A stretch of DNA of 63,285 nt, counting the filler, from Bipalium vagum (taxonomy: Eukaryota): NCBI GenBank assembly GCA_037834085.1. It is 3 parts of 3 records of this genome, joined end to end, with 100 filler letters (N's around TTAATTAATTAA, not from the genome) between each part and the next. Parts side by side here need not be neighbours in the genome. Positions count along the whole stretch, not along the records: positions 29,888 to 45,694 come from JBBMKC010144926.1; 2 more parts are not named here. One strand, 5' to 3'. Below are positions 6,131 through 45,694 of this stretch, piece by piece. Numbering within the stretch: position 1 is the stretch's first letter; each line of letters begins with the position of its first letter. A program made the position numbers and the translations under genes. The notes beneath the pieces were generated by a model, which was not told the DNA's origin, made no database searches, and saw only the letters and a list, made by a program, of their open reading frames with translations.

Positions 6131-6133
6131 GTG

Positions 6134-6201
<68 letters not shown>

Positions 6202-9200: not shown

Positions 9201-9934
9201 TTCTATTTTTATTGAATGAATTTGTTTGGCGAAACTCTATCGAGAAAAACAAAATCAAAGACGTTTCATAATGACTGGTGACATTTATCACGTATAATAA
9301 TTGCTATAATAAAAATTTGGATTTAAATTTAAAATGATGAACTTACGAACGGCAACTGCAACATTACCTAATATATTTCCTTTTTATGGAATTCATAATT
9401 TATATTATTTATTATCAATAGATCCCTGTATACCAAATCCTTGTGTTAAAGGAACTTGTCTGAAATATAAGGATGGACACTACTGTCAGTGTTTTGCTGG
9501 ATACACCGGAAAACTCTGTGATCATGGTATGATTTATTTAAATTTTATTAATTAAATTTTTTAATAATATATGAATATGAAAAAATTCAGTAAAATGAGT
9601 GGTCACTGAATCGATTTCTGTGATTTCCAATTTGAAATATTTTAATTTCTAAAAGTTATGTAAATTTTATTTTACGGAGTCTATTTGAAACATATGGAAT
9701 GGACGATCTTAGCATTCCTAAGTCCCAAGACCGATAATTCCATTCAAAGTATTGAATTTCAATAAGTTATAAGAAACACTTTTATTTGACTTGAGAGTAA
9801 CGGGCTCAGTACTGGAGAATCTGATAAAACCAGCGTTACTGATAAAATGTCAGTAATTATTGATAGTTTTCCTGAAACAGTTAACTAGACTAAGATTTCT
9901 TAACACTTCATTGTTAACAATGACATTAAGCTAA

Positions 9935-10003
<69 letters not shown>

Positions 10004-13000
10004 CCTTATTATTATTACAATCGTTATGTTTTATATGGTTACGGAAAATATTGAGAACCTTTAAGTTTTTGGTACCAAGCAGAAAGCAGAATATAATTAA
10101 ATATATTTATTTGTAATGATAAAAATAAACATTCTATTATAAGTTGTGCTTTATTTCTTTTTAATTTATATTTATGTGAATATTTAAAATATCAATAATT
10201 ATAAATGATGCACAATATTTTTGAACACTGGATCGAGTAACATTCCAATAATGAGACATACTATCTAAAAGCTCATTCTAAAATATTAAATAATAATAAT
10301 TATTATAATTAATGAAATAAAAATAAAGAATAGAAAAATTCTCAATTTCTCACAGCTTACCTTTCAGTTCCTTGTTATGTATATTGTAAACAAATTCCGT
10401 TCATGTTTATTTATAATATATATTATATAACAATTTTAAGCAAAGTTTTATTATTAGAATAAGAAACCGAAGTTTATTATAAAACCTTTGGTCACACAGC
10501 ATGCTTTGTATTCAACTATGATCATGAAAATTATTGAGATAAATAACCTGAATATCAAATTCAATGAATACAATAAACAAAAGTCAATGTTTATTTTGTG
10601 TTGAATATTTGTAATGATATTAAAAAATACTAAAAGATATAAGATTCATTATAATAATAATAAAAATAATAATAATAAAGAAAAATAATAATAATAAATA
10701 ATAATAATAATAATAATAAATAATAATAAATAATAATAAAGTAATGATATTAACAAATACTAAAAGATATAACATTCATTATAATAATAATAATAATAAT
10801 AATAAAAATAATAATAATAAAAATAATAATAATATTATTATTAACAACTTTTTATCTCAATTTTATTACCACTTCTATTGAGCAGATTCGTCCATCAATT
10901 TCTTATCCAAATTGAGACATTGTACCAATTAGGATGAAGATTTATTACGTTCACTTTCAGAAGGCAAAAACCAGAATTGATTGCTAATGCCTTTCAAGCT
11001 GAAACAGAGTAATATGACGCTCTTCTAATAGCCAGTATGAGGGGATTTCTGTTCTCGTAACTCAGTCAGTTGGCTGTCACAATTCATTACGAACATTGAT
11101 GGAATTTTTGATTAAATTTTGGCTTACTTAGTCCCATCACCCTCGCAGGAAAACGGTTCAGTTATTTATCTGTGAATTCTCACTTGATAAAACAATAAAC
11201 CGCAATTAATATTGAACATTTTTCTAAAAACCAAAGCTACTTTAATAACTTGAGATAATCCTCTTTGGATTTTTATACATACTTTGACATGTGATGTAAA
11301 TGGATATGATCAAAAGATACGTTCCACTCACGATTTATGATCCTTCCGATACAAAATCAATTTTATTACTGTTTTTTGAGATTATAATGAGGATTTCACA
11401 GAAATTAAATAATTTTTATAACTGAAAAATTTCCCTAATAAAAATTCAGTTTCATTCCTCAAGCATTTCCTATCAATATTTATTATTGAATAACTTTAGT
11501 ATTTTATCAGCTTAAATAATGAAAATTTTATAATAAATTAGTCTAAAAATATTTTTATAAATTTATCAACATGCACAGAGTTTGTATAAGGTAGGCATCC
11601 GATTTTGGAGATATATCATACTTAAATATTCCATTTATGTTTACTAAGAAATAAAATTTAATGTAAATTTTTAATTGTTTTAATAAATAGATGTTATCGA
11701 ATTTAACGGCAGTAAATTCAAATTTTAATAATGTTCTACATTGAAGAAAGAATACAAATTGTTTTACTGATAGCTGAAATTGAATTAATCGCATTAGTAA
11801 GACGGCATTTATAATGCTTGAATTGGAACAAGATACGTACAGTGAGGACAATGAAAAAGATATTTGCAAAACTCAAAGACTGTGAGAGTGCGAACTTTTG
11901 AAGTCTGGAAGAATTGGAACAAGATACGTACAGTGAGGACAATGAAAAAGATATTTGCAAAACTCAAAGACTGTGAGAGTGCGAACCTTTGAAGTCTGGA
12001 AGACTATCAATTCAACATGAAAAAATATGAATAAAAAGTCAGATTTATGAAGAAACGCGCGAGACATCGCTAATACCTGCTGCTACGAAAATTGAGTGAG
12101 GTTTGAAAGCTTTATACAATGTAGTACGAATAGATCTTCAACTTTATCCGCACAAGATCTTAATTATTCTTACAGACTGAAAAAATTGTAATGTGCTAAA
12201 TACCAATTAATGAATCTTAAAATAATCCAACTTTGCTACAACTTTTTTTTAAATTACAAAAACCAAAGGATATCCTGAAAGGTATTATTCAAATGAAAGC
12301 AGTTAGAATATGACAAAAAATGTGTTAAAATGTTATGAATGGCTTTTACAATAGCTTATATAAATGTATTAAAGCTAAAGGTCATTAAATTTCAATAAAT
12401 AAGTACTAGTGTCAACATTTCTGCAGTCTTATGTTGAATATACCAATAGGGTATTACATTTTAAAATCGGTTGCTTACTTTATACATAAGCTGTATAAAA
12501 TATAAATCAATAGTGACATTATTTTATCAATGTTTAAATATTAATCATTGCGAAATTTTCATTATATATTGAAAAGTCCAGAAACAAGGTCCAAAATTAG
12601 GAAATAAAATAGTTTAAATTTCCTATTTATGACCTTATTGTATTTATTAGATATCAACATGTGTGACTTTAAATCTTGTCTGAACGGAGGAAAGTGCGTG
12701 AAGGGAAAAAATGGTATCAATGTATGTGAATGTACTCCAGGCTTTAGAGGATCCGAATGCCATTTGTCTGACCCATGTAAAAATTCACAATGCAAACACG
12801 CTTCAGATTGTCAAGTACAATCCACGAGCCTTGGAGAATATAAATGCAATTGCCATGATGGATACACGGGCAAATACTGTGAAGAAAAAATTGATAAGTG
12901 TAAAAATAACCCTTGTAAAAACAATGGAGTCTGCCATGTTAGTTGAATATGATTTCTTGTAATTCTGTAACATTAGAACTAAACTAGAAAATTAGTTTTC

Positions 13001-16000
13001 ATATTTCAAAATCAAAGTGATACAAAGTTCTTTTACAGAAATAATTTTTTCAAAGATTTTCATTGAAATTTTCATTGTATGGTTAACAATATAATTTTTT
13101 TTATAATTTTTGACACATCGTTTTTTATCAACAATGGTATTGAGTTCAATTATTAAAGTGACAAAAACTGGTCAAAATAAATGGTTTATGTTCTTTGATA
13201 TTTTTGCAAATCAAGAAATGTTAAGACCTTCCTTTGTAACAAGTTTTCAAAAATTACTTCGAAATTTGATTGCTATAGTGATACAACATAGACTCTTTTC
13301 ATTTCTTTCTTTATAACATTATTTCCGTTTAAATCTTGCCTGTACACATTTTACTCAAATTCTATGAACTAATCCAACTTTTTCAATACCTTTTAAAACC
13401 ATCGTGATTTACAAGACCATTTAAAATAGCGATTTAAAATGTAAATATCAAAAACATTGACTGATGAAGAACTGAAAAATAAAAGTTCGAAACATGTTTC
13501 ATGAAAATATATATTTGTGAAAATTTTTTATTCATTTAATAAAACGCGTATATTCGGAAAATAAATTTTATTTTCTATAGAAATAGGATTTCTGACATTT
13601 TATATAAATGTTAAATTGTTTTAATAAGTTAATATCACATTTAGATTCATTAAAATTGAAAAGATTTGGTTCCTTTTTCGGTCATAAAAATGTTAATGAC
13701 TCAAACTACTTAGACATGCTGAAATCCTCATTCTACAACTTTTTCGAGAAAAGATCTAAATTATTTTTCAACAGGATTGAGCTCATGCTCATTAATAGTT
13801 TCAAACTGGAAATTTTCTCAACATTGGAAGGTTGATTGGAAGAGCAATCCATCCCATTCTGCTGCGAGATCACAGAATTTTTACCAAATAATTGTCTTTC
13901 TTTGGGTATATCTATAAATAATAGTTTATACAATAAAACCAAAGAAGCTAAAAGATCTGACAGATGCAATTGAAGAGACAGTTAAAATATTACCACAAAT
14001 ATGTGAAAATCTTATTTTCCTTCTATCATCGATTAAAATATAGTTTTATTGTTAATGGATGTTCTGTTGAAAACTATTAATTTTTGATAAATTTATTTCA
14101 TTGTGTCATAAATTTAAGTTGATATCTTAAGTATTTAAGAAACAAACAAGTATTTAACAATATAACATTTTAAAGTATGATACTTACTTTAACAGACCTT
14201 GAATCTTTTCTAAATTAACCTTTATCTTATACAACAAGAAATATAAAAATTATTCATACTTAAAGGATATTGATAAGATTGTGTTAGAAAAAAGTAGAAT
14301 TTTGACATTTCTCATTATTTTCATCAGAAATATTTTATTATGGAAGATGATATTTTGTTATTTATTGATGAGATGATTATTGTTCAGGAACATAACAACA
14401 AGTATACCTGTGAGTGTAAGCCGGGCTTTAAAGGTCGTAATTGTGAACTGAATATTGCCTGTCAAAGCCATCCTTGCAAAAATGGTGGAGTTTGCCAAGA
14501 AACAAATCTCGGGTACAGTTGCAAATGCAAAAAGGAATATTCTGGTAAAAATTGTGAGGTGGGAAACTTATTGGTTTTTAAATGGCACTCTAAATGTCAA
14601 ATGGAAATTAGATCTATAAAACCGGTTGCAGCCCGAATCCATGCTTAAATGAAGCTTATTGTTATATAATAGAACAGGACTTTTACTGCAATTGCCAATC
14701 TAATTTTTGGGGAAAACAGTGCGAACATGCTCGTCCGTATTGTGGAAAAGAATCTTGCGAAAATGCCTATGATGCCTGTTCAATGCCACAAATGATAAAT
14801 TCTAGTGGAATTAAGCAAAATGTTTGTGGCAAATTCGGAACATGCTTAAGCCATGGAAACCGAACCTTCAGTTGTAGATGTGCGACAGGATTTGAGGGAG
14901 AATTTTGTGAAGTGAATATTAACGATTGCAAAATTAATTCCTGTGAAAATGGAGGAATTTGCATTGATGGTATCAACGGCTTCGAATGTATTTGTTATAA
15001 TGGGTTTCATGGTAAACGATGCGAACAAAGTAAACACATATTATACATACATATAATATTATTATAAGTCGTAAATGATAAATATTAAGGAATTATGACC
15101 ATATTTTAACAAATTATTATTTTTTTTTATTATTTATACTGCTAAAATTTTAATTTATATGTTACCTTTAAAAATGTATACTTTTCTTTCATTAAATATA
15201 ATTTCTAGTTTGTGTTTCATGCATTAAAAAACCAATGGAGTAACCTTTACTATACCTTCTGAGTAAGAAGTTAATGTGAATTTAAAAAAGCCTATTTAAA
15301 ATGTCTATGTACATTTGATATATAATATCACAAATCAATCAATACTACGTAATATTGATTTCTTATTTTGTTCATATTTTTCCTTTCAATGACACAAAAA
15401 GAAGGTATATAAACTCCTGATAGACTAGAAAGTGCATTGTGTTATCGGCTAATAAACAATGGAATAGCAGATGGACCATTACAAAAATTATGTGCTCGTC
15501 TTCATCATCAGAGAGTTAATACTAACCAGGCCACGTTTTAATAGGCAAAGCATTGTTTAAAAAAATCCGGAAAATCAACAAAAATTGATTACTGCCATTA
15601 GGGAAAGGCAAACAATATCCAGTAGATAACTTGAATTCTCGAATAAAAAACCAAGTATCTTGGGTCATATGATGAAACAAAAACCTGAAGGTGGATAGGA
15701 CAAAGTCCATTATTGAAGAAAACAATTGAAATAATTGAAATGGTGTACAGAGCATCTTACACTGCGTTTTTGGATGAAAAATGGTGAATCACATTTAGAA
15801 AAAAAAGAATTATAGAAGATCGAAAACACCTCCAGTTTATGTCAGTAATGTTCATCCCTTTTGTTAGTTGATATGTTTCTCAAAGAAATGTGGGTCTTCG
15901 GCCAATCGCCGAGTAAAAGCAATACAAAGGCAGTTCGTGCTACCATCGTTTCGTGATATGTTTTGACATGATTTGAGTTGCGATTAATAGTACAAATGGA

Positions 16001-19000
16001 CATTGAATTGATTCACATTACTGAAAATACAAAAAGTAATGGGTTGTCATCCAATTTTTCGACTGATGCTATTTCTTATTTTCATTGGAAGATTATTATA
16101 AAGAGTTATTATTTATATATCAGAATATGGTATTTTGACTTCCTCTTCTAATATTCTCTTATTTTTGAAATGAAACACCTAACTTTAACATTCTTAAGGA
16201 TGAGATGAGATCTTCATTAAAATTTTAGTTAATGTTTGTTATTTGTTTATTATCAACATTTTTTTTATTAATCTTGAAAAATCGAAAACATTTTTATACT
16301 TTAAAAAATTTCAGAAATGGATTTTTGTAGTCGAAATCCATGTTTGAATGAAGGAACATGTAAAGAGGAATTGACTAATTCATTTAATGATTTCAAGTGT
16401 CACTGTAAAAGTGGATGGGGAGGAAAGCTATGTCACTTACCTTTTAATAAGATTTGTGATCCTAATTCCTGTTTAAATGGTGGAACTTGTACAACAACTT
16501 ACAGTTATAATAGATTCGAATGTCATTGCAAAGAAGGATTTGTGGGAACTGTTTGTCAATATCGTGATCTATCAAACCAACCTTGTAATGACAATAATCA
16601 TTGTAAAAATGGAGGAACTTGCATCAATGTTGGCTATAACAATTTTACATGTCACTGTCCTCCAGGATTTGAAGGCAGGCGATGTGAAATAAATATCAAT
16701 GAATGTCATCCTAATCCATGGTAATTGTTTTTTTATTTAATTTTTTTATCGTCTTTTTATAATATAAATAATATTTTAATTTCAGCTTTAATGGTGGACA
16801 ATGTAGAGACTTAGTTAATTCATACAAATGTGTTTGTGAAGTAGGATTTTACGGAACTAACTGTCAACTGAGTATAAATTTAAAAATATTATAAAAAAAA
16901 ATAATGCAATCTTTTCTTAAGACTTTGACGAGTGTGCATCCCATCCATGTTCTTATGGATCAGTATGTGTAGATAGAATAGATGATTTTGAATGTCGATG
17001 TCCACAAGGCAGATCTGGACCTCGTTGTGATACGGTTATAAACAATTCACCTCCTCAACCTCCATCCTGCGTTTATCACGATCGAATATTTGATAGTGGA
17101 GAAAGGTGGACATACAATTGTAAAGAATGTCATTGTACACGAGGAAAAGTCGACTGTGTCGATGTTAGTAAAAATCTTCTTAAATTAATTTAAATATTAA
17201 TCTATTTTATTTTTCAAAGAATATTATGAATATTTTTATTTGGATTTTACTAATGTGGACAAAAAGCAAGGTGAATTATTAGTTTAAACCCAATGTATAT
17301 TTATTTTTAAAATCAATTTGGACTCCTTCGAAGATATCCTCTTCCGATATAATACATTTATTCTAAGGTTTTTTCAAACTTTCGAAACATTTCCATTTAT
17401 CCATAATAAATTTCGCAAACATGAGTTTTTAATAATTGCAAATTTTAAACCTAACAAAGAAAATCAAATCGAGATTTTTGTAAACAAGCTAATGGATTAA
17501 AAAAAGATAAAGCAAGCTTTAACAGAATATATATGAAAGAAGAACAATATGAAATAAACATTGTAAGGATATTTATAATAATAAGTTGTTACGTTTATTG
17601 GTAATTTAAAATTAATGCATTATTTAAGGATCTTAAATTAAAATTTTGAAAAGTTTAGGCTTAAAATATGATGAAAAATTCTTTTTAAATAAAATAAATA
17701 ATTAAATTAACATTAATTAATAAAATAATTAATCATTAAAAAAATCAGTAATAACATTTTCAGAAAGAAATCAATTTGTTTTAATATCAGAAAAATATAA
17801 ATGTTATCATCAAGAGGTTTTTGTTAATAAAATTTTTCCTGATATAGTTATAAATAATATAAAATAATAAATATTATTATAAATATAATTATAAAATAAT
17901 AATAAAATATTTTTTTTATTTATATTTTATTATTATTTTATATTTTCTGTATAATTGAATATTTTTGTTCAATTGGTCCAGTTATGCCTATCGATAGAAC
18001 TTTAAGAAATATTACATTAAACTCTAACAATTTGTTTGAATCAACAATAAATATTCACCTTTTGTTAGTTTTCACTTTTTGATCAAGAGTTAGCTCAAGA
18101 TATTAGTCTTAATATTTCTTAAACTATTTCAATCTCATAACTGATTTCATCGTATGACATTCCTTTGATTACCTAAATGAAAATTTAAAATAGTATTATT
18201 AATAACATTGTTATAATAATAATAATAATATAATAATATTATTATTATTAATAATAATACTATAATATTTTTTTAAAATATGATATTAATTTCTGTAAAA
18301 AAAACTTTTGTTGATAATTTTTTTAAAATATCCATGTTATAATTCTGTATTGTTTTGATTTTTATTATTAATAATTAGAAATCTCTTTAATAACGTTAAA
18401 TTAAATACTATTAATATAGATAAATTGCGGAGTTTGGAACTGTAATAAAGCAATTGGACCTAACGATCCTTATGCTTGCAAAATCGATGAGCTTTGTCAT
18501 GTATATCCTTTCAAGGAAAATCGCTGTTTTGTTCCTCCTTGCGTTGCCAAGGCTCAATGTATTAAACATGGATCCCAAGCTCCTCAAATCACTGTAAGAT
18601 GGCCTGGTGAAACCCCCCTATCCTGTCAACCAAATAGTATTCAAAAAAATAATTATTGTTCGCAAATTCTTCTTACATTTGTAAAGCCAAATTTACCAAT
18701 CGGAATTACCATTGATGACATTTGTGAGGCATTGAAAACATTAAAATCGGTTAGAAAATTCGAAGACAAGTCAATAGGTAAATCCCTCGGTATGACATGT
18801 GATGCTAGTGACCGTAACCCATCTATAATTATTGTAAGTGGTTCAAAATATTAATTTTTGATTTTCAAGTAGGTGCTACGCCTATAATTGCTGAGTCTTT
18901 CAGTAAAAATATTTTTTTTTGAAATTTTAAAAGATTGAAATAAAAAAGAAGAAATCATTCGTAAAGTCAAATCCAAAATGGTTTATTTAATACCACTGAA

Positions 19001-22000
19001 TAATTTCGGAGTTAATTTTATGTTGAAATTTAAATTGTTCCTATGTTATTATAATATGTCATTTTAAGGTCACCTTATCTCTTTTTAATTCCAAAAAATC
19101 ATTTGTATTTTTTCGCCTTCATAAAAAGTATAATAAGACATAATTTTCACTTGTCGGTTTTTACCCATAAACACAAATTATCTATTTTTTTTGTTTGATT
19201 ACCTTTGTTAAGGTTTACAAAATTTATGGAATGGTTAATCACTTTATGGTACATATTTAGAAGAGATTCGATCATATTAAAACATCGTCACCATCTGTAT
19301 AGAACCCATAGTATAGATGATCGAACCTGGTTTAATATGATTAAAAATATTTTAAACTAATCTGAGTTAACAAACGAACTTCAACAGATTTTGTACAAAT
19401 CAAATAGAAAACACCATCAACTTGATGATTGCAATTACAATTCCCGCCAAAAGTCTTTGGCCACTCTTAAAATTCTAGAAAAAAGCATTTATTTGATTCT
19501 AGTCATTAATATTTATTAATTCCTTACCTGGCATATTTAGATTTCTCTACAAAATATTATTAAATCATTAATCAAAATTTATCAATAAAAAAAATAACTA
19601 AAGAATAAATAACTAAAAGATAAACTAGGCTTTTTTACATGGTGGCCAAAGACTTTTGGGTGGGACTGTATATTTCCTTTTGCCAAATTTCAATAATTTA
19701 TTTTCTAACGATTTTCGTGTCTTCCTCCATCATTGAATCTATAACAATTTTGCAAACAAAATTTAAGAAAAATGTGACAGCTTTCAGAGGGTTGTGGTGT
19801 CATTGTAAGTATTAATTTTTTGAGGCTTCAAAAATCTAAAGGTAACATAGAAACTTGTGGGCTTCCATATTTCTATGTTTTCGATGGATGTTTGCAAAAA
19901 AGGAATTTCCTTCTTACATTTTTAAATATAAGATTTGTAAGATTTTCATTTCGAATTTAATTTTAAAATTTCTCTGCATGTATAAATTATAGCCAGTGAA
20001 ATTCAAAACAATTAATTTAAATTTTAAAATAAAGTATTGAAAACATATTTCTTTTTTTATTTATTTAAATTTATAATATCATAATCATTGATCTAATTTA
20101 TTAAAACAAGAGAGGTATAAACCAAGTGACGTTTTTTTATTTAAATGATTTTTAATATTTATTTATTTTTAAAATTAAAGATTATTTCGAGTTTGAAATA
20201 TGCGATGGATTTTTTGTTCCAATCTTTTTATTGATTTCATCGATTTTATTTTTGTGATTTTTCTGTTAGAAATGCATTTTTACATAAAAGTTTTCAAAAA
20301 AAATTTTACTAATCCATCAATAATATACTCATTTTAAACCTTTATCATGTATATTATCATCTTTTTGACTTTCCTGAAATGCATTTTTCATTTTCCTGCA
20401 ATAAAATTTTAAAAATATTATTTAAATCTCTGTTTTATTTGCGAGCGATGGTAGAACTCTATTAATAAAAATGTTATGCTTTCAAGCGTTTTCAATTGTT
20501 TTGTATAAGAAAATTTTTTTGGTTTTATATTGAATATTATTGAGTAATATTATTATTAATTGTTTCCATTGTTTTCCATCGGGTGTACATATTCATGTTT
20601 AATATAAAAAGTATATTGATTTGCATGTGATTGAAAATCTATTCATACTCTCCTTTGAACTCATGATTTCTCAGGTTGCAATTTATTCTCCAACGGAAGA
20701 AAAAACTCGTAATACAAATACGCAGCCATTGAGACCGTTTACCCATTATCTTAGTGATGCCATTTCAAATAATTTAGTGGAGGTGGTAAAGAACAGCTCA
20801 ATATTTTCTGGATTAACAGACATCAGAGTTGAAATATTGTTAAATTCAGAATCAATGGGTAAACATTTTATATTTGAATATGTTCTATGTATACATATAA
20901 AGACTATTTTATTCCTCGAATATAAAGTAAACTTGTCTATTTGAAAAAATGTCCAAAAAAGATAAAAATTGAACAAAACAGATGGCGATATAAGTAATAT
21001 TTAAATTCTAGTAAAAATTTAATGACTTATTTAATAAATACCAAGATAAACTTATCTGATTCAAAAAAATAGGAAAGTTAATTATATTCAAAATCTTTTT
21101 TATTATCAAAATATTCACTACCTATCGAATTATTATTCAATATCAATATCTTTTAGATCAATGTGAGATGGTCCTCCGCAGCGGGATACATCATTCATAT
21201 CATTTTCGGCATACTCGTATTGATCGTCTCCATATACTTTACATATTTTCCTATGTGCATCCGAGGCTGACTTTAAATTAACATAATATTTATAAATAAT
21301 ATAATTCTTACCTTTTTCATAATAAAACAACAGAATATGACGAAAATGTTACATTTTTTGCATAATGATATTTTAACAAATAAGGTTAAATAAATGTAGT
21401 TAGAAAAAGGACAAAAATCATTTATTAAGGATGCTTTTAACTTCTCTGCTTCAAAGATTTTTTCTAGATATCTTTTTAATTAGTGGAGATCTTTTGTAAG
21501 TGATTTGTTAGGACTTTCCCGTCATTCAATATAATTGTTTTTTTCCATTAACAAGAGTTTCTATTTTTTTAATAGATGCTTCAATGTTCAATTTGGTCTT
21601 CATCGTCAGTTTCTATTGATATTTTTTCATTTACTACTTACTTTATCGGAAATTTCAGTTTCTGTTACATTTTCTTCTGGAATTTCAATAATTTCCTTCT
21701 TAACATGAAAGATTCTTTTCAATGTTTAAGTCATCCACATTCTAGCAAAATGCTTCTTTATCAATTAATCAGTCTAAAACACCTGTCTTTTTAAAGATTT
21801 TTGAAATTGTTGATAACTTTGATAAATTAACAATGTACAATCTTCAATTGGTGGCTTAAATACCTTTGATTCATCAGCAACTTCAATTATCTGATCCTCG
21901 TATCTAGTGATTGTAAGTAAGGTTTTGCAGCTTTTCCGATCACAGTTAACTTAAATTTATCAGATCCAGTGAAATTAGAACATAAAATTATTGTGAATCT

Positions 22001-23011
22001 CTCTCTTGGTACTTTTGAAACACCCAAAGAATGTTAAAAGAGTTTAATTAGGTGCGAGTTTTTAAAAATTCAAGTTTCGTCTATTATAAATTTATAAATA
22101 TTTTCGTAAGTATTTGAAACCATTCTTGTTCACCTCTATTCTATTTAATTATCAGAGATTTTTTTAAAAATGTTTCAAATTTTGATTGGATAGAAAAAAA
22201 TCGAATAATCGAGGTTTCACTATATATTAGGTATAGGAATTAATTTCCACTGCTTTTTATGAAAATAAAGTCGTTTATTTAAAAGTAACAAAACATTTAT
22301 TTCAATCAAAATATTTTCCGTTGACAGCTACAACTTTTGACTATTGAAGCTTCTTTCGGCAAAGAATGGATTTCTTGTTAAAAGAAATACTTTGAAAGAA
22401 TTCATTTTTTGACATCTTCATAGGAATTGAAGGCTTGTCCAGCAAGAGAATGCTGCATAGATCGAAACAAGTGGAAATCAGATGGCTTTATGTCTGATAA
22501 GTACGGCAGGTGAAGTAGAACCTCCCATCCAAGTCTATTCTATGTTTCTTTAAATGATATTACAAGATGTGGTTTGGTGTTATTGTGTTGCAAAATTATC
22601 TGATTAGATCTTAGACCATAATGTGGCCTCTTGGTACTTATATATAATTATTTTTATCATAATGTTTGGGGTTTCCATAATTTTATTTATTGTATTTTAG
22701 ACAAAAACTATTTAATGAAATATATGCTTGTGCCAATAATCGTTTTCGGTCTGATTATTGTAATGATTGTATACTGGTATCATCGAAGGAAAACGAAAGA
22801 AATTCGTGAAAAATTTTCAAATAGTTCCAAAATAAATAATAACAAAATTCAAGGACAATCTCTTAATCCTTTAAGGTCTCAATATCCGAACCTTAGGCCT
22901 GGAATTCCTAATAAGCATTTAACTGAACAGCAAAGTTTTTATGGGGCAAAATTACCCAACCAGAATTCCAGATTTGCTTGGTCTAGATTACAACATCCTT
23001 TCCAAACATAA
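5815..23011 (+). CDS. jagged: Jagged/Serrate-family Notch ligand, 5'-partial, 14 exons: 5815-6130, 7735-7795, 7844-7977, 8024-8149, 9422-9526, 12651-12937, 14388-14558, 14612-15029, 16315-16720, 16786-16871, 16922-17163, 18420-18833, 20675-20858, 22701-23011
   Basis: All introns are GT-AG with compatible phases; the joined length is 3261 nt (1086 aa + stop). Domain order is C2 end ([11 protein letters not shown]), DSL, two DOS EGFs, 16 EGFs including the Jagged-specific interrupted EGF10, VWC and Cys-rich juxtamembrane region, TM, and an RRK stop-transfer motif. Confidence 0.95.
7735..8149 (+). CDS. jagged: Jagged exons 7735-7795, 7844-7977, 8024-8149 (DOS EGF1-2, EGF3)
   Basis: [64 protein letters not shown] is the classic DOS motif; 48- and 46-nt introns. 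Confidence 0.93.
8220..9050 (+). mobile_element. Mariner remnant in Jagged intron
   Basis: [36 protein letters not shown] motif, degenerate right TIR at ~9020-9050. Confidence 0.85.
9422..9526 (+). CDS. jagged: Jagged exon, EGF4
   Basis: [35 protein letters not shown]; phase-1/phase-1 splice sites. Confidence 0.9.
9935..10003. repeat. (TAA)n microsatellite
   Basis: Uninterrupted AAT run. Confidence 0.95.
10611..10840. repeat. Two-copy ~130-bp unit with a (TAA)-rich tail
   Basis: GTAATGATATTAAxAAATACTAAAAGATATAAxATTCATTATAATAATAAT at 10611 and 10741. Confidence 0.85.
11821..12002 (+). repeat. 91-bp tandem duplication (one mismatch) inside a Tc1-like remnant
   Basis: 11821-11911 vs 11912-12002. 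Confidence 0.95.
12651..12937 (+). CDS. jagged: Jagged exon, EGF5-6 and start of EGF7
   Basis: EGF cysteine spacing; AG at 12649-50, GTTAGT at 12938. Confidence 0.92.
13100..14205 (+). mobile_element. Tc1/mariner-superfamily (DD37D/DD41D-like) remnant
   Basis: [16 protein letters not shown] and degenerate IGRA..ARS..LW.YL motifs; TIR-like end at ~14181-14203. Confidence 0.65.
13455..13503 (+). ncRNA. Type I hammerhead ribozyme motif (Penelope/retrozyme-like)
   Basis: CUGAUGA (13461-67) + A + helix II GAACU/AGUUC + GAAA + palindromic helix III (ACAUGU) + GUU site + short helix I (CAUUGA/UCAUG). Confidence 0.55.
14388..15029 (+). CDS. jagged: Jagged exons 14388-14558 and 14612-15029 (EGF7-11, including interrupted EGF10)
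   Basis: [36 protein letters not shown] parallels the Jagged EGF10 insertion (HCRTTPCEVIDSC...SNVCGPHGKC). Confidence 0.93.
16315..17163 (+). CDS. jagged: Jagged exons 16315-16720, 16786-16871, 16922-17163 (EGF12-16, start of VWC)
   Basis: EGF repeats followed by [31 protein letters not shown] (VWC). Confidence 0.92.
18420..18833 (+). CDS. jagged: Jagged exon, cysteine-rich/juxtamembrane region (absent from ORF track)
   Basis: INCGVWNC...[13 protein letters not shown]...[29 protein letters not shown] resembles JAG1 QCFVHPCTGVGEC...[28 protein letters not shown]. Confidence 0.9.
19438..19668. mobile_element. Tc1-type MITE, ~230 bp
   Basis: TIRs CAATTCCCGCCAAAAGTCTTTGGCCAC / GTGGCCAAAGACTTTTGGGTGGGACTG, with TA on both sides. 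Confidence 0.85.
20675..20858 (+). CDS. jagged: Jagged exon, membrane-proximal region
   Basis: VAIYS...[14 protein letters not shown] resembles JAG1 VAIS...NSSLIAAVAEVRVQ; CAG acceptor, GTAAAC donor. Confidence 0.88.
21120..21365 (-). mobile_element. Mariner transposase N-terminal remnant
   Basis: [30 protein letters not shown]. Confidence 0.8.
21420..22222 (-). mobile_element. pogo/Tigger-family remnant
   Basis: [35 protein letters not shown] (DDE_1); TIR-like TCGAATAATCGAGGTTTCACTA at ~22201-22222. Confidence 0.8.
22225..22640 (-). mobile_element. Mariner 3' remnant with TIR
   Basis: [46 protein letters not shown]; TIR TATTAGGTATAGGAATTAATTTCC. Confidence 0.88.
22701..23011 (+). CDS. jagged: Jagged last exon: TM helix and ~76-aa cytoplasmic tail
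   Basis: Hydrophobic [19 protein letters not shown] followed by HRRK; TAA at 23009-11; AATAAA signals downstream. Confidence 0.88.
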
Positions 23012-30030: not shown

Positions 30031-31639
30031 TCCGTTCTTACATGAGGAAATCGGGGAAAAAATGTTTGAGAATTGGGCTAACTTGTGCAGCACAGGAATA
30101 CTGACAAAAACAATTGTCTTAAATGGTCGCCTAAACAAAAAACTGATGAACGGGCACCTGTGAAGTACAGATGAATGTGTGGGAATCATTAATTAAAAAG
30201 AAAAGGAGATAATTCAAGTGGTGGAGAAAATTATAATTTATCATTGGATATTTTATTTCATGATTTTGTTCATTTTATAATCTTACAAAAAAATTGTATT
30301 ATGTGATAAACGTCTTTTATTTGTGATTGTATTCATATTTTTTTTTAAATAATAAATTAAATTAAATAATGATAAACAATAATAAAAGGAACTAATACAT
30401 TATTATTAAATTAATAAATAAACCTATACCTGGAAGGCTTATCCACGATGGAAGCAGAGGCGGATCTAAAAAAGAAAATAAATAAATAAAAATAATAATA
30501 AATAAATCTATGTAGGAGGAAGCAAGATCAGACTGGTACCTAAAGAGAAAAGAGAAATAAATAACATATATAATAAATAAATAACCTACTCAAGTGGGGG
30601 AATTATAAAATAATCAATAAGCAAAATATCCCATTAAGCCCATAGTGTGTGACTATAAAAACTCAATTGGTAAAGTAGTCACACATAAGGACTAGGTGAT
30701 CATTGATTTTATAATTAAATCCCATGAGGACTTTACATAAAATAATAATAATAAAAAATTAAAACTCAAAAATAAAATAACAATAATAAAACATTAACTT
30801 ACACAAAATAAATTAAATTAGAAAACAAGAATAAAATAATAATAATGATAATAGTGATAATAGTGGTAGTGATAGTTATGGAGATTAATAATAATAAATT
30901 AAGTTAAACAAATATTTAATAAGTAGCAAGAAATTACGTCAGTGAATAGGATTACGACAAATATGGATAATGACGTCAAAAGGAAAAAAGAAATAACGTT
31001 ATTTTAAAAAAACGTTATGATAGAGAAATAGTATTTTTATTTATTATTATTATTTGAAATAGTATTATTTTTGAAATAGACACATATGATAGAGAAATAG
31101 TATAAATACCTGAAGAAAAATCATAAAAATTGGCCTTCAAAAATTTCTAATTATTAGTTTATAATTAAGAATTAAAGCGAAATTTTGAAAATTAAAGTTT
31201 ATCATAACTAACCTAAAAAACAAAGCGTAAGTGAATTATCACATTCACTTTAATTAACTAATTAATTAATTAAACAAAACGTGAACATAACTTCTCGTTT
31301 CTGTTCTTATAAAAATAAAATCTTCTCTCTTCTTTTTGTTTGTTTCTGACAATTACTAGTTATCAGATTCGATTTTTTACTTCAGAGCGTTTGTACATTT
31401 CCTCATACAGATTGATATCTTCTTTAATTATTTATTGTCATTTTGATCTTAGTGTCAAAACCTTTTAAAAATTTGTAAAAAATTGTATTTAGAATAAAAA
31501 TTTTAAAAATCATTTTGCTTGTCTTATTTGTGATCAGTACACTACCTTAAGGAGTCAGATTAAGATTATACACACACCCACAAAACTTAACAAATGTTAC
31601 TTTATTCAGAAGTATCGGACTGATGATTTACAAACCAAA

Positions 31640-32260
31640 AAAAATTGAAAAAGACCGGCAACTGTAGAAATTTCTATGGGAGAGAAGAAGCTGCCTCACA
31701 CGCCTTATGCAGCTGCATCTACATAATGCCTGTGGTGCGAAAAAGGCACAATGATCTACGCGATATCTTAGTTGATTTGTTGTCCACACTTAAAAAGGAA
31801 TGGGAAATGCACATTGAAAAGACAGGAATTTTTCAGGAAAAAACTTAATTCCTGATATACAATTAATGAATAAGAGGCTTAAAAGATATCTAATTATAGA
31901 CGTCAAAGTCCCTTTGAATCAGAGATTTCAATCAAGCGCAGTGACAAAGCAAACAAGTAAAAATATTAAACTTTGTTGGAGGAAGCTCAATCCGAGGTCT
32001 GAAGAACATGGTACTACGATATCAGAAAATTTATAATCTGAGCCGGGGGTTCGTGGATCCCATCAAACTACCAAACACTCGGAGCATTTGGATTTAAAAT
32101 AGCAGAAATTAATTCAATTATGGAAAAATGTGCAGCCAGGGCGATCATTAATACCTATAATATCTGGAAAAAATTCATAGCCAGAGCAGAGACAAACATT
32201 TAAAAACTTTCCCGTGTCAATTACAACCATATCTTTGATTTAAAATAAACCACTGTTTTT
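31640..32260 (+). mobile_element. 3' end of an RLE-type non-LTR retrotransposon (NeSL/R2 group)
   Basis: Degenerate CCHC knuckle CRNFYGREEAASHALCSC, RHN motif, PDI..IIDVKVP endonuclease core, GGSWIPSN, AATAAA at the 3' end. Confidence 0.85.
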
Positions 32261-35500: not shown

Positions 35501-35959
35501 ATGAACACTGGAAACTTGAGCTTTGGCCTTATTATTACTACTGTAGTTCTTTTGATTATTGCAGTAGCAACTCCATATTGGGGATGTGGAAATATTCTAT
35601 CTGACTGTAATCAAAACAGTACATTCATTGCAATCAAGATATTTTTCATGCTGGGCTTTGTTTGTGCCATTATTGTTTTAATTTTGGAGATTATGGGATT
35701 CGCCTCTCTCACATATCGAAGCAATGGAACATTAAATCTGGTCCGATTAATAATATTAGGGATCGGGGTTGGAAGTTTAATTATTTGTATATTTATATAT
35801 ACAAGCGCTTACTTTAATTTGTGGGCGTATCTATTGACCATTATTGCACTGACTTTGGGTATTCAATTGTTAACCATTGGACTCATGACCAGCAGTTGCA
35901 CTATTACAACCAGATCATCAGGCCATGTGGTTGTTAGAGAAACGATTGTGACCCACTGA
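35501..35959 (+). CDS. Small four-TM claudin/PMP22-superfamily-like protein (152 aa), single coding exon
   Basis: Four hydrophobic helices; AVATPYWGCGNILSDC after TM1; WAY motif before TM4; AG acceptor at ~35465 upstream of the ATG; AATAAA at ~36166. Confidence 0.8.
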   Translation: MNTGNLSFGLIITTVVLLIIAVATPYWGCGNILSDCNQNSTFIAIKIFFMLGFVCAIIVLILEIMGFASLTYRSNGTLNLVRLIILGIGVGSLIICIFIYTSAYFNLWAYLLTIIALTLGIQLLTIGLMTSSCTITTRSSGHVVVRETIVTH

Positions 35960-37109: not shown

Positions 37110-38150
37110 TGTTGTGCCCGTAATTCTATTGCTCCCATGCAAAATTAAACTCAAAATGAATCAAAACTCCCACAACAATACTTTATCCGCACCCTGAAAA
37201 CTGAATCAAAACACTCACAATAAAACTTTATTATAAATTTAACAACAGCCTGATGCAACAACAAAATTCAAACCAATACTCGTAAATCACCCAAAAAATG
37301 TTCAATACCCAAAACAAAATGGCTTCAACATCAAATAATCAAAATCGAGTCAATGGTTAAAGTAATAATGAACACAAAGCAAACGATTAATAATAATAAT
37401 AATAATCTAATTAAATAGTTTTAAAGAAAAGGGTGAGAAAAATAATCACACAGAGAAAGAGTTCCAGAGTTAACAAAATAAAACGGTCTCACTAGGAGCG
37501 ACAAGGGGTCCCCGGGTCGTCTTCCAGGTCCTTTGCAGGTCACCTATGGATTCTTAAACTCGATGGGTCCCCTTGGCAAATCCTCTTGCGAAACCATATC
37601 CACTAAAGTTGAAAACTGGAATTCTTGAACTGTCCTCGGGTCCTCTGGAAAATCGCGTCAAATCGTCCTCCTGAAATTGATTTCTCTGAGATTCGTTTTT
37701 CTGAAAATTCGTTTTTGGACTCTGAAAAATCATTTATGAGCAAATTTCTGGGGATAGTCGTATCTTTATATAGTCATAGAGATTTGGATACGATCACCAA
37801 TCCCTACGCTTCGAGACGGCTATTTCCATGAATAGCCCATTATTGCTAACTTTGTCTCGACTCCGAGACAAAGTTAGATAAAAGGATAAATTACTCCAAC
37901 AACGGAGTTTAGTTTCCTATTCTCCTCAAACACAAAAAATAATAATTAATAATCTCACCTCATATCATTGACACCGAGACTTTTATTTCATTATTATTAT
38001 TGCTATTATTTTTATTATTATTATAATTATTATCCCTAAGTCGCTATTATTTATTTATTCCTACATTATTAATTAATATTTTATTATTATTATTATCAAC
38101 GGGTTTTGTGCCTTTGGCCAACCCAATCCTTCTTATTAACTTGGTTGTGC
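37110..38150 (-). repeat. LTR-like repeat with CCAAT/TATA promoter module, related to 57900-58270
   Basis: Two conserved blocks shared with 57920-58170. Confidence 0.5.
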
Positions 38151-38619
38151 TCGATATCTCGCTATCATTTCAAAAAAAAATCAAATTTTTTAAATCGTAC
38201 TAAAATTATATATCTAAACGTTTCAAAATTTTCATTGAGTTTCTCCAAATTAATTTTACCCTTTTCTCAACATAACTAAACTATTTTTGTTTTATCAAAA
38301 GAAATCTGAATATTTAATAAATACCTTTAAAAATACACTTTCAAATTGCGGCCAATTATTAAAGTCTTACAATTTCATTAGAGGAATCTTTTGATGGATC
38401 TCAGATAATGAATGAGCTCGATAGTAAAATCAAAGAATATCAGTGAATACATATTTTCTGAATATATGAACAATCAGTAGCTTCTAAGTTCGTTATGATT
38501 AGAATATAGAGAAAGGTCAGAGACTAAGCGGAGGTGGACATGAGAAATATAATCAATGATTGTTTAAGATATAGTCTAGCTTGAATAGAAATATTCGTGT
38601 TCAGCTTTGCTTCACGAGA

Positions 38620-39110
38620 CTTCGTTGAGTTCGGCATTCCCTGATGAACCCCTACTAAGTTCTGCCAGGAACAAATATTGATTAATGTTAAGAAAACTAT
38701 GATGAAATAATCAAAAATTATAATGCAAATGAAGCGCATGGAAGTGAAACTTCTGAAACAGGAGAAATAAGTATTCATCCAATTCCTAAACAAGATTCAA
38801 TTCCAATTAATAGAATTGATCAAGTTGTTATGAAACATGATGTAAAATATATTTTTAAAGATTTAAAAGACAGATATATTGTTCAGCCAGATATCAGATG
38901 TTCAAGTGATACATAAAATAAACCAAATCGAAAATTCTACACCACGGGAAAAACTTGAAATAACAATTGTAAAAATTTTAATGAAGAATAAGGTGGACTT
39001 GGTTTATGTTTACCAAGAATTTCATAATCTATTGCAATAAAAAATAGATTCAAATGTATTTCCTCTAGATAAAATTAGCAAATGAACTTCATAAAGAATC
39101 AAAATTAAAT
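38620..39110 (+). mobile_element. Polinton/adintovirus-type fossil: parvovirus-type PLA2 (PLA2X) pseudogene followed by integrase N-terminus
   Basis: KFC(fs)PGTNID..ENYDE..PINRIDQVVMKHDVKY..DLKDR..D..STPREKLE..IVKILMKNKV.LG, then KLANELHKE at 39072-39098. Confidence 0.75.
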
Positions 39111-39759
39111 GTCTACATGATTCTCATTTTGGTCCAATCATTATTCCTGATTGAATTATGGATTTTATTGATTCTTCGTATATCTTAGAAAGAAAATTGG
39201 TATATATATATATATTATTAGCTTACAATTTTTTATCTCACTTCACACCTTTTCTACTAAGATTCATGGTTTCAATAAAATATTAATGTTTACATGTATT
39301 TTTAAACATTTTAAAAACTTAATAACGTTTTGTTCTATAAAAGTTATTGAGTTAAAATTTTATTGGTTTATAGATTTAAAGATTCTCTAAATGAATAAAA
39401 ATAAATTTCATAAATATTTTATTTTCTGTACATGAAAAACATTCGAATTTTACATGTAGCTTAATTAAAAAGAAACTAAAAAAATTATGGAAGAAATATA
39501 ACTAATTACAAAGATATAACGGGAAAATCATATTAAATTCAAAACATTTCAATTCAAATATTTGGTATATTTTTTTAAATATTTATTTATTAATCTAATA
39601 ATATTTCGAATTTGAAATATTATTATTATTATAATATTATTATTAAATATTATAATATAATAAATATTATAATATAATTATAATATTATTATTAAATATT
39701 ATTATTATTATTATTTATTTGAAATATCAAAATAGATACTTTTCCGATGAAATCTTATT

Positions 39760-40737: not shown

Positions 40738-42567
40738 ATGAAAACTATGAAGAAAATTATGCTATTATATTTATTCAAAATGATAGAATTTATTTCAGCT
40801 AAAGATATTAAAGATTATAATGAAAATGAAAATGTCATTCTCTATGTTAATAAAGTAGGACCATATTACAATCCTCACGAAACCTATCACTACTATACAC
40901 TTCCAGTTTGTCGTCCACCAGAAGTAATATTTAAAAGTCTATCGTTGGGTGAAGTATTAGATGGAGACAGAATGGCCAAATCTATATATCAAATACGCTT
41001 CAGGGAAAATATTGAAAAGTTTAAACTTTGTCAGTTGAGCCTGAAACCGAAAGACATAACAAGATTAATCAGTGCTATTGAAGACTTATATTACTTTGAA
41101 TTTGTGATAGATAATATTCCAATTCGCGGATTTATTGGAAATTTAGAAGAGAGTAAGCTGTTACCACACACGCACAAGGCTCTGTTATACACGCATCATG
41201 ACATACAGATAGAATACAATAGAAACAATATTATTTACGCCAATGTGTTTACTACTCAACCTGATCCCATTAATTTGATCCCTCTTCAGCAGCAACAGAA
41301 ATCGATAAATGTTACTTTTACATATTCCGTTAGGTGGATACCGTCGACAACATTGGGAAAAGATCGAGCAATTAAACAAACCAAAACTGACTTCTTTCAC
41401 ATCACATTGGAGATTCACTGGATCAGCATAACTAATTCTTTAATTCTGGTGTTTTTACTGTTGACTTTCATCATGTTCATCATCAGTCGCGTGCTTCGTC
41501 GAGACTTTGCGCGGTACAATCGACAGAACGGCTCTGAATACGTAGCCGACGCTGGCGAGGACCAGGACGAACGGGGCTGGAAGATCGTGCACAACGATAT
41601 TTTTCGACCACCTCCAAACAGGCTGCTGTTTTGCAGCGTCATTGGAGTTGGGTGTCAGCTCTTAGTGATTGCCGTAGGAATCATCCTCATGACTTTGTTC
41701 AACGTTTTCAATGTCCACAATCACGGCGTGATAAATATCGCAGCTCTACTGCTTTATTCACTCACGTCTTGGGTATCGGGTTTCATCAGTTGTCGTTTGT
41801 ATGTCATGTTTGAAAACACAACCAGTCCCGCTCAACTGCATTCGTTATCGATCGGCTGGGTCCGAGTGGTCAATTCGACATCGGCTCTTTTTGGACTGCC
41901 TTTGTTGACTGTCTGGTCGACATGCAATACAATATCCGTCTTTTATGAAACGACTCACGCCATGCCGTTCTCCACTATTGTCATTTTGTTATTGATTTGG
42001 CTTCTTGTCGGATATCCGCTTACAATCGCTGGAGGGATGCTCGGTAAACGTACAGCGGCTCGAGTCGACACCAACGGCTGTCGTGCCCGCAAAATCGCCC
42101 GGGAAATTCCCATAGTTTCCTGGTACAAGTCAAAATACGTTTATTTGACGCTGGGTGGGTTTTTGCCGTTCAGTTCGATTTGCATTGAGCTCTACTACAT
42201 TTTTTCAACTATCTGGGGAAGGGATCATTACAATCTTTATGGAATTCTGTTCATAATTCTCATTATTCTTCTCCTGGTCACCGTTTGTGTTGCCATTAAC
42301 CTGACTTATTTCCAGCTGGTCAACGAGGACTACCGATGGTGGTGGAACTCCGTACAACTGGCACTAAGCACGGCTTGTTTTGTCTTTTTGTATTGCATAT
42401 TTCACTATTTCTATCGATCGAAAATGAGCGGGTTTGTTCAGACGATCGAATATTTCAGCTATAGCATTCTTATCTGTTACGCTTTCTTTCTCGGTTTCGG
42501 AGCCGTCTCGTTTATAGCATCGTTCTATTTTATTAAATTCATGTATCAGAATATTAAACTTGATTAA
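40738..42567 (+). CDS. TM9SF1: Transmembrane 9 superfamily member 1 (nonaspanin/EMP70), intronless CDS
   Basis: KVGPYYNPHETYHYYTLPVC, SLSLGEVLDGDRM, LEIHWISITNS, GWKIVHNDIFRPP, EDYRWWW, C-terminal NIKLD (KxD); signal peptide and nine TM segments. Confidence 0.95.
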   Translation: MKTMKKIMLLYLFKMIEFISAKDIKDYNENENVILYVNKVGPYYNPHETYHYYTLPVCRPPEVIFKSLSLGEVLDGDRMAKSIYQIRFRENIEKFKLCQLSLKPKDITRLISAIEDLYYFEFVIDNIPIRGFIGNLEESKLLPHTHKALLYTHHDIQIEYNRNNIIYANVFTTQPDPINLIPLQQQQKSINVTFTYSVRWIPSTTLGKDRAIKQTKTDFFHITLEIHWISITNSLILVFLLLTFIMFIISRVLRRDFARYNRQNGSEYVADAGEDQDERGWKIVHNDIFRPPPNRLLFCSVIGVGCQLLVIAVGIILMTLFNVFNVHNHGVINIAALLLYSLTSWVSGFISCRLYVMFENTTSPAQLHSLSIGWVRVVNSTSALFGLPLLTVWSTCNTISVFYETTHAMPFSTIVILLLIWLLVGYPLTIAGGMLGKRTAARVDTNGCRARKIAREIPIVSWYKSKYVYLTLGGFLPFSSICIELYYIFSTIWGRDHYNLYGILFIILIILLLVTVCVAINLTYFQLVNEDYRWWWNSVQLALSTACFVFLYCIFHYFYRSKMSGFVQTIEYFSYSILICYAFFLGFGAVSFIASFYFIKFMYQNIKLD

Positions 42568-45500
42568 CGGTGGTGAAGGTATTGATTTCCGTTTTCGAAA
42601 AAATAATATAAAAACCTTTATATTTATTTTTTAAAAATTCACTAATTGATATGTATTATAATTATAGAAAATCAATAATTTATTATTAATAGGTGATAAA
42701 AATTTTGCTGTGTTGATTTTGATTCACATTGTCAAATTCTAAATGCGCTTTACAATTTTTTTGTAAATATCGTTCTCTCAGCAGGCTCCTTAATTTCATA
42801 GGATATAAATGATAGGAAATCGTGATCCTTGGCTTTTTATGAACGAATTCACATTCGAGACCATTTATCCGCTCACTCGTTCAAAATTACACTTTGTTGT
42901 TAATAAATAAAGAGGTAATTATTGTTAATTTGTTTTAATTAAAAATCAATTTTGTAATATTTACGTCTGAAAATTTTTCCTGAGATTCTTTTTGCTGTTG
43001 AGCAAAATAAAACAGCTCGTGTGTAACAACTGAGAAATTAATTTAAGTCTTAAAATAATAAACAATTGATTTAGCTTGATAGTTCTTTATGATTGATTTT
43101 CTTGTTCATTGGAGCGTAACAAGCATTGATTGGAGAGAATTTTTAAGATATTATATGGTTATACTCTTTAATGGACTCACCTGGAAATGGTTAATATTCT
43201 TTGAGTGTAATTTATTTCTGAAAATTAAAAAATCAGTTTATACTGCAATTTTTTCTAGTCCTGAACGGCTGTTTCAATGGAGTAAATTTTTAAAATTTTA
43301 CTAATTTTTTAGCAATGTCAATTTAGGTTTTATGTACTGTTCTCGAAGAAATTTAATTTTTACATAGTTTCGGTAAATAATAGTTAACTTATTAATTGAC
43401 ATTTAAAATGACAATATTGATTTTTCTTTTCTTATATCTAATCTTCAACAAATCAGTGGTTTAGATTTAATAGTTTTTGATGAACAATAATGGTAAGTAA
43501 TCTTTTAAATTGTGTTATGATAACATTACTAGCAATTCATTAAATAGTTAAGAGTAAATTGCGCTTTATTTCAGAAAATGCAACCATTAATTACCGAATG
43601 ATGTCAGTTTTAAGATTTTATATTTTAAACATCTATTTTGAGTGATTAGCTTTGTTTTGGTATTTCCGGTTTTAAATTATCATTAACAGTAATTTGATTG
43701 TGATAAGCTTATTCTCATTTGGTTCTGATGAGTTAAGAAATCGTATCTTAGTCTTATTTTTCTTCAGTCTAAATTTTAGTTCGTATAGTGAGAGAATTAG
43801 TCTTCCTGTGTCTAAATATCATATTTAATTTATCGTATAAAATTTCATTTACGTCATTTCAGAGGCTAAATGACCTAATTTAAAGAGCTTTGACTGTGAA
43901 TTCTATATAATTGCTGATAATATTTGAAATCGAAATCAATAATAATAAAAATGCAATTAAAAAAAAGTAAAATTCTAAAGTCGAATTAGCAATATTAATA
44001 ATAAAAAATTAGAAATCAAACAAAAAACAAATGAATAATTTCACCGATATTGGAATAACCAGTGTCCCAGATCATCCACTCTGGTAACCGTAACGAGTAA
44101 TTCATGGTTAATCAAGTCCAAGGACTCAAGTAGCATTGACGATCAATGAATGATATGCCTTTTAAGCTAAAATTTCTATTTTTAAAATCTTTAAATAATA
44201 TTCAATTTCAAGAATATTGTTGGATTTACCCAAAACATCTACCAAGTAAGTAATACTGAGAAGGCACACAAAATGAGTATGAAATAATAATTAAAAGTTA
44301 ATTAACCATAAAAAACAATAAAATAAATAAGAAAGTGCAAAATATTTTTATTTTAGAATTATATAAATTACGAGAACAGTCATTAAAAATTAATTTTATT
44401 TTGAAAAGGGGTAATTTTAAAATAATAATAGTAATTAAAAAAGAAAGATAAAAGGAAAAGTGAGAAGTTTTAGGATTTTAGGGCTTTTGAAGATGTTTTT
44501 AGGATGTTAAGATTATTTCATGAATAATCTTCAAATCAAGATCAACAGAGATATCTCAATAGAAGTTCAACCTGAAAATTGTGCAAAACTTTACAAACTA
44601 AGCTTTTAGAAGGTTTTTGAAGATTTTGCAGAGTGTTTGTTATTAACGATTGCAAAAGTTTAATTACAAAAATTCTTCCAAGAATTTCATCAATTGTTTG
44701 ATGAAATTATTCCTGGGATTTTGTTTAAGTTTACCACCAGAGGGCTAACTCTAACCAACTGTAAGGACAGCTGTTATTTCGGGAAGCTTAAACGAAGCTA
44801 AACCATAAGTTTGTTTTTGTTAACGTTCTTTATTATTATTTAAGTTTTACTCTTGTTTTGATTTATTGCTTTTTCCTCATTAAATTTACGTATTTTTTTA
44901 ATTAATTGATTATTTTGATTTGATTTCAATTAACATGCTGTTTTGATTGATTCGATTGAATATTACCTAAGACATTTTAGATATTGTTGTGATACCTTTG
45001 TTGAGTTTGACAATTTTTGTATAATTGTTATCATCGAGATTTTGAAATAAGTTAGTGACATTATAAAAGTTAATAAAATCGATATTTTAGAGAGTTAGTA
45101 GCTTTAATAGGTTCAGATAATGAGTGTTTTTAGAGTGTCTGAGCAGTCTATAATTGGATAAAATACTCAGGACTATAGATCTTCGTTTTTGAATATGAAA
45201 TTTTAAAAAAAACAATTATTTTTCATCTTTAAAAAACAACATTAAAGTGGTAATTAATATTCAATGTTATGCAAAATCTTTATTTTCTTTTCTTAAAAAA
45301 TGTCTGACTCATATTATTGTGAAGTTTGTAATAAATTATTTCAAAATATAATAAGAAAAAACATTTAATTACAAATATAAATTTTAAAAAAGTACTAATA
45401 AAAATATTTATGAAAAAATAAAAGAAAAATATCCCGATTTTTAAAAAAAGAAAGTGATGAAATTCAATCATCAAATTCAAATAAAAAACTTAAATAAATT

Positions 45501-45694
45501 TACTGCAGGGAAATATCCAGGAAAATTACATCTAAAATCTCTAAACCCTTTTAATAAAACAATCTAAGAATAAATAGACCAGGAACAAATACAATGCCGT
45601 GCATATGTTTTGGGCCTCCTCTAAAATTTCGGTAAAATGATGAAAATATATAATTATAAGTACTTTAATCCTGTCTATATTTAAATATATGATA

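Follow-up and report, generated by a model that had tools for sequence, protein, structure and literature searches.

Architecture of the locus

The window, i.e., the whole stretch of 63,285 nucleotides analysed here, was joined from three records of the Bipalium vagum assembly GCA_037834085.1 and carries, in the part taken from JBBMKC010144926.1, a dead fragment of a Polinton gene. In this fragment, the 3′ part of a group I intron (38290-38664), recognized by RF00028 and by a family model, is followed by the coding sequence of a phospholipase A2 (PLA2)-like domain and by the beginning of an integrase, all on the plus strand. The fragment opens with the last codons of an intron-borne nuclease ORF and the 3′ arm of the P2.1 helix (38290..38335), which align with the nuclease-bearing copies L068, L069 and L070; residues 251-338 of the protein P0164 match positions 38284-38556 (tblastn, E 8e-5). 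Everything 5′ of 38290 is absent, including exon 1, P1, P2 and the body of the nuclease. The decayed intron core P3-P9 (38329..38664), detected by the same two models, retains a paired P3 (38336-38342 with 38530-38536) and an intact P7 (38522-38526 with 38572-38576) in which the G-C guanosine-binding pair is kept. P8 and the P9 hairpin (38580-38596) are still paired, and P4 and P6 are broken. A P9 extension with two predicted hairpins (38597..38656) is typical of the subfamily of the window copy: it is common to L003, L011 and L020, present as one unit in L004 and L007, and absent from most copies. The terminal intron base, a G at 38664, is kept and directly followed by the PG codons from 38665, while the 5′ splice site is absent.

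Exon 2 encodes the PLA2-like domain from PG onward (38665..38995), with HDxxY at 38836-38850, and is interrupted by stops at 38683 and 38689 and by a frame change near 38870-38895. The decayed linker and the first part of the Polinton integrase follow (38996..39180), with LANELHK at 39075-39095 and the catalytic core absent; these linker and integrase pieces gave no Pfam match, and the DNA match of the window copy to fused copies extends to 39099. RF00028 scores the intron of the window copy at 37.2 bits (E 1.5e-7), under the 50-bit cut-off, and the family model, built from 26 other copies with the window copy left out, scores it at 125.8 bits as the sole match in the window. Reads of one sequencing run, likely the source of the assembly and so not independent of it, cover the pieces of the window copy without differences. 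Neither terminal repeats nor a 6-bp target duplication were found around the window copy, and the contigs of the family are too short to reach element ends.

An earlier note on this DNA had read the region as a parvovirus-type PLA2 gene placed directly before an integrase start. The peptides that it quoted are readable, with HD at 38836-38841, PINRIDQVVMKHDVKY, TPREKLE at 38939-38959, LANELHK as above, LSGGG at 38524-38538 and FVEFGIP at 38621-38641; KLANELHKE does lie downstream, ~80 nt after 'NKV', and 'KV.LG' is readable only with a frame change. However, half of the flagged stretch is non-protein. FVEFGIP..KFC, taken for a calcium loop, sits in the P9 extension of the intron, and the protein resumes at PGTN (38665). 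LSGGG, taken for an adenoviral-type protease site, is formed by the P7 5′ strand, J7/3 and the P3 3′ strand (38524..38538), in a frame that is closed four codons upstream in the subfamily of the window copy. The (M/I/L)xGG pattern cleaved by adenain belongs here to ribozyme helices rather than to a virion protein that is expressed. What makes the locus unusual, the group I intron, had been missed.

A fused PLA2-integrase gene in a Polinton family

A DNA search of the same genome (441 Mb, 272,664 contigs) gave 52 matches among the 40 scored of 1,492 candidates. The better-kept copies read a zinc finger, PLA2, linker and integrase in one frame, and PLA2 and integrase share a single frame in L002, L023, L025, L026, L030 and L038. 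Because these copies read the domains in one frame, LANELHK is internal to the protein rather than the start of an integrase gene, and the proposed pair of a PLA2 gene and a separate integrase gene is, in this family, one fused gene. The identity of the two domains was correctly recognized from the outset. Intron-less copies carry the FTGPG calcium loop and HDxxY, and family copies match both PF08398 and PF00665 (rve), the latter with E 1e-11 in L066, which also matches PF08398, and 4e-14 in L059; for PF08398, L002 falls just under the cut-off (E 2e-4) and P0001 is over it. Within the window, the PF08398 comparison suggested earlier gives a weak result for the PLA2 piece 38692-38913 (E 0.046), while matches to PLA2-integrase proteins are found at E 2e-19. 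The fusion is widespread, with 701 homologues at E<=0.001 in public assemblies (the best 120 of the 701 being listed, P0001-P0120), and among the 47 homologues chosen and aligned, rve was found in all and PF08398 as well in 45 at E<=0.001. PLA2 genes in Polintons have already been published, as described in the main texts of PMC3671162, PMC8502044, PMC5803895 and 10.64898/2026.06.19.733378; the fusion to the integrase as such is not named in the literature found.

Downstream of the fused gene, pX-like, protease-like and penton-like ORFs were recognized by eye, along with A32 ATPase ORFs. The capsid family PF21738 is found on the junction-holding contigs C255916, C4540 and C30627, the packaging ATPase PF04665 on L074, and pPolB matches (tblastn) adjoin 3 of 20 extended copies (L068, L069 and L075). 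Judged by sequence, the family belongs to the Polinton/Maverick elements. Since it holds capsid, ATPase, protease-like and pX-like genes, the virion stage that had been proposed is plausible. An integrase-only transposon was dropped as a candidate, capsid and ATPase genes being linked to the gene.

A group I intron in the calcium loop

In many copies, the PLA2 calcium loop is split as FTG|PG by an insert, which Rfam calls a group I intron and which is one: RF00028 matches all 28 scored places in the genome, 27 of them over the cut-off. Exact patterns searched in the same genome gave 48 intron 5′ junctions (control 1) and 77 3′ junctions (control 21), together with 287 empty junctions (control 4; the context of part of these was checked), i.e., filled and empty alleles occur in one genome. 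The pattern did not fix the last base of exon 1, which is U in all 48 5′ junctions; among the first 100 empty sites listed, 6 have U at the corresponding position. Among copies whose 3′ end was mapped, the majority have G as the last intron base, with CC after it. Group I features found in the family include the U-G pair at the 5′ splice site in P1, the terminal G, a P10 guide pairing (by eye) and the G-C guanosine-binding pair in P7, a helix whose two strands are both changed in L183 and L172.

Across 75 pairs in 26 copies, 93.6% are paired and 16 pairs have changed on both sides, a number reached by none of 500 shuffles, slid controls being 33-49% paired. Because L183, from which the structure was derived, is itself in the alignment and the copies are related, these scores are inflated, and the compensatory changes are taken as support and not as a probability. 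P1 and P2 (30 copies, 13 pairs) are 90.7% paired, with 3 double-change pairs that do not exceed the shuffles (45/500); in P1, a double change of exon and guide distinguishes this genome from L183 and L184. Helices of a P5abc-type extension, of P2.1 and of the P9 extension are present, and the P5abc-type extension may have an A-rich bulge like that of IC1 introns, a subgroup to which the intron may belong.

The intron outside this genome

The same site is occupied by an intron in two metagenome contigs, L183 (RF00028, 101 bits) and L184, and in the viral contig L172 (family model, 131.6 bits; RF00028, 52 bits), in which it is missed by the standard Rfam scan. P7, P8 and P9 are altered yet paired in these outside copies. 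The two exons of L172 and of L183 have open frames, with the intron placed between two codons. L172 combines capsid, ATPase, protease-like and pPolB genes, and its pPolB, ATPase and capsid ORFs carry Pfam matches. In such an element with open genes, the integrase lies behind the intron, and splicing would therefore be needed. L172 has no internal nuclease and carries a free GIY-YIG gene instead; in this diverged, nuclease-less arrangement (L172:2804-3145 and 3280-3581), the GIY-YIG gene is just upstream of the intron and collaborative homing is possible.

Exact intron motifs had no match in viral contigs, and the junction pattern had 11, one being the L172 contig and the other 10 intron-less. 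Loci retrieved with the nuclease query held no intron in 14 viral cases and in 21 of 23 metagenome cases, and 10 of 11 viral integrase/PLA2 loci were likewise without it. The intron site has the sequence GGNCC; this palindrome occurs 12 times in 61 kb of element DNA against 21.0 expected, two other palindromes being equally low, and 0 times against 4.3 expected in the 10.7 kb of L172; it is not avoided in L173, in host-like DNA or in pPolB/capsid loci.

A putative HNH nuclease in P2.1

Among the 29 copies with a mapped 5′ site (of 41 distinct copies), 4 carry a nuclease-sized insert (L014, L017, L070 and L183), which is located in the P2.1 loop and flanked by a long stem. The remaining intron copies measure 320-441 nt and show several different deletions, all of which keep the base of P2.1. 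The aligned nuclease ORF has an invariant WHxDH and two N; it gave no significant Pfam, PDB-sequence or Foldseek match, and the short nuclease tail alone gave no BLASTP match. Weak structural matches, all below Z 8, were obtained with CAD (Z 5.1) and PacI (Z 4.1), which are beta-beta-alpha-Me nucleases, and with the Hpy99I zinc finger (Z 5.9), and the Atlas neighbours of the ORF are viral, one of them being named HNH. The intron ORF is likely an HNH nuclease, an assignment that should be regarded as putative. In P0164 and in L183 (with one TGA), its frame continues from P2.1 across P3-P7 for ~240 nt and ends at a stop codon within P8. The frames used across P3-P5 differ between two lineages (L183:374-1396 and L022:1360-1770), which then return to a shared frame. 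ORFs related to the nuclease ORF are not confined to introns, as in L034.

Proposed intron cycle and alternatives

We regard it as probable that the window copy is a dead Polinton PLA2-integrase gene with a calcium-loop group I intron and that, in active elements, this intron self-splices and is spread by nuclease-driven homing. In such elements, the intron would excise itself from the mRNA, a step on which the phospholipase and the integrase would alike depend, being encoded in exon 2. Empty alleles would be cleaved by the product of the HNH-like ORF in the P2.1 loop and would then acquire the intron, along with the last exon bases, during repair of the break. The ORF may then have been lost several times by deletions sparing the P2.1 stem, and integrated copies would decay afterwards. 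We lean, by a smaller measure, towards a broader proposal, in which the whole intron cycle (invasion, homing by its own HNH nuclease, nuclease loss and decay) takes place among Polinton proviruses in animal cells and acts as a gate on the entry phospholipase as well as on the integrase, with the nuclease frame of one lineage extending across almost the entire ribozyme core. If so, Polintons would be a route for group I ribozymes into animal nuclear genomes.

The distribution of the intron among copies bears on an alternative that we consider unlikely, namely that a real and spliced intron entered only once and was scattered by recombination or precise loss, the nuclease ORF being a passenger. 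On the exon-2 DNA tree (46 rows, after two unclassified rows and the L095 rows were dropped), the intron state requires 11 changes, at least 4 of them being forced by starred branches; a single intron clade is rejected (p-AU 0.00016), and the intron state is no more clustered than in shuffles (78/500 as low). The resolution of this tree is weak, with long branches and 19 of 43 forks open, and a scattered intron could also result from recombination between elements in the absence of homing. A passenger ORF would also fit the lack of a significant family match and the relatives found outside introns, but the ORF occupies the same peripheral loop in this genome and in L183. The exon bases next to the site argue against this alternative. 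Among loci passing an exon-1 filter (53 intron and 48 empty alleles), position -1 is U in 51/53 intron alleles versus 2/48 empty alleles and position -4 is G in 46/53 versus 9/48; the link between exon marker and intron is strongest at these two positions and weakens with distance. Precise loss predicts GGT|CC, whereas GGA or GGG precedes the site in 46 of the 48 empty alleles, so that homing with co-conversion, and not precise loss, would explain the pattern.

Homing in animal cells would be dispensed with if the intron were active only in a non-animal (protist or fungal) virus host and were carried here as cargo, never spliced in animal cells. According to the main text of PMC12220804, protist Polinton-like viruses do carry group I introns; the outside contigs L172, L183 and L184 are without an assigned host, and all examined copies in this genome are damaged to some degree. 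We nevertheless find this reading improbable, even more so than a single entry. Each of several intron variants (P2.1 deletions, P9 extensions and P8 covariation) is shared by two or more copies in the genome, suggesting that amplification followed the origin of the variants, and integration requires the exon-2 integrase, though empty alleles could provide it in trans.

The first reading of the locus, in which a virion PLA2 gene that stands alone and has a protease site upstream precedes a distinct integrase gene, is scarcely tenable: PLA2 motifs are present in the window and such a layout exists in other Polintons (in L173, an ORF for PLA2 alone immediately precedes the integrase), but here the two domains share one frame in the six copies named above, both occur in 45/47 aligned homologues, and the motifs upstream of the PLA2 piece belong to the intron.

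Relation to known introns and elements

Group I introns were reportedly found by Yamada in 1994 in protein genes of Chlorella viruses, which are eukaryotic DNA viruses. The Chlorella virus is an algal giant virus, whereas the intron described here lies in an animal endogenous element. A close parallel is provided by Polinton-like viruses of a few protist groups (Paulinella, Desmodesmus and Rhodomonas), to which the main text of PMC12220804 restricts such group I introns. Like these, the present intron matches RF00028, has a comparable size (~300-380 nt in the protist cases) and lies within a protein-coding gene of an integrated element of the Polinton type (PMC12220804). The protist introns are described there in a short gene that precedes the capsid gene, with no annotated nuclease (PMC12220804), in contrast to the animal genome, the PLA2-integrase gene, the P2.1 nuclease ORF and the joint occurrence of empty and filled alleles found here.

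The nuclear rDNA IC1 introns, such as Tetrahymena L1925, share with this intron a P1-P10 core, a P5abc-type extension with what may be a similar A-rich bulge, and P2.1, as well as nuclease genes in peripheral loops and a cycle of loss (PMC3679873, as far as its main text goes). They reside in microbial rRNA genes and encode His-Cys box nucleases (PMC3679873), while here a proviral protein gene and a likely HNH ORF are involved. The continuation of the nuclease ORF into ribozyme helices is also seen in the 'core creep' introns of phages and bacteria, whose overlaps as listed in PMC3073962 span 0-81 nt, compared with ~240 nt in L183 and P0164. As for the gene itself, adintovirus/Maverick PLA2X and CAP likewise combine parvovirus-type PLA2 motifs with neighbouring capsid, ATPase, protease and pX-like genes (PMC8502044, PMC5803895). 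In the main texts of these two papers, PLA2 is separate or joined to pX, whereas here it is fused to the integrase and split by an intron, with a pX-like ORF downstream.

The main text of the review PMC3679873 places nuclear group I introns only in microbial rRNA genes, and that of a 2025 database of 42,459 introns (PMC11835236) lists, among animals, only placozoans, corals and sponges, mostly with mitochondrial introns. Among the paper passages, title listings and abstract openings covered, none reports a group I intron in an animal Polinton; the supplementary figure in PMC8502044 and tables S11-S12 in PMC12220804 may be relevant to the claim on the intron as well as to that on the fusion. 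The present genome holds dozens or more group I introns in a proviral protein gene of an animal nuclear genome, with empty and filled alleles side by side, and the old question of group I ribozyme splicing and homing in the Pol II mRNA of an animal nucleus becomes testable. Polinton PLA2-integrase genes would be misannotated wherever the intron is overlooked.

Neighbouring genes and repeats

At 45279-45600, a second decayed zinc-finger/PLA2 5′ fragment appears to be of the intron-less type. The interval 37440-37910 is a high-copy repeat, also found near the element copies L062, L074, L121 and L242, and may be either an element end or a separate repeat. Pieces resembling a retroelement endonuclease (by eye) form a repeat remnant at 31081-32033.

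The contig of the window copy also carries host genes. A claudin-like small membrane protein is encoded at 35501-35959, its nearest Atlas clusters being mostly from flatworms (0.94, 0.92), and a single long ORF at 40738-42567 encodes a TM9SF/EMP70 membrane protein (Pfam E 1e-143). Elsewhere in the window, a multi-exon EGF-repeat gene extends over 5815-23008 and is presumably Jagged/Serrate-like, as judged by eye.
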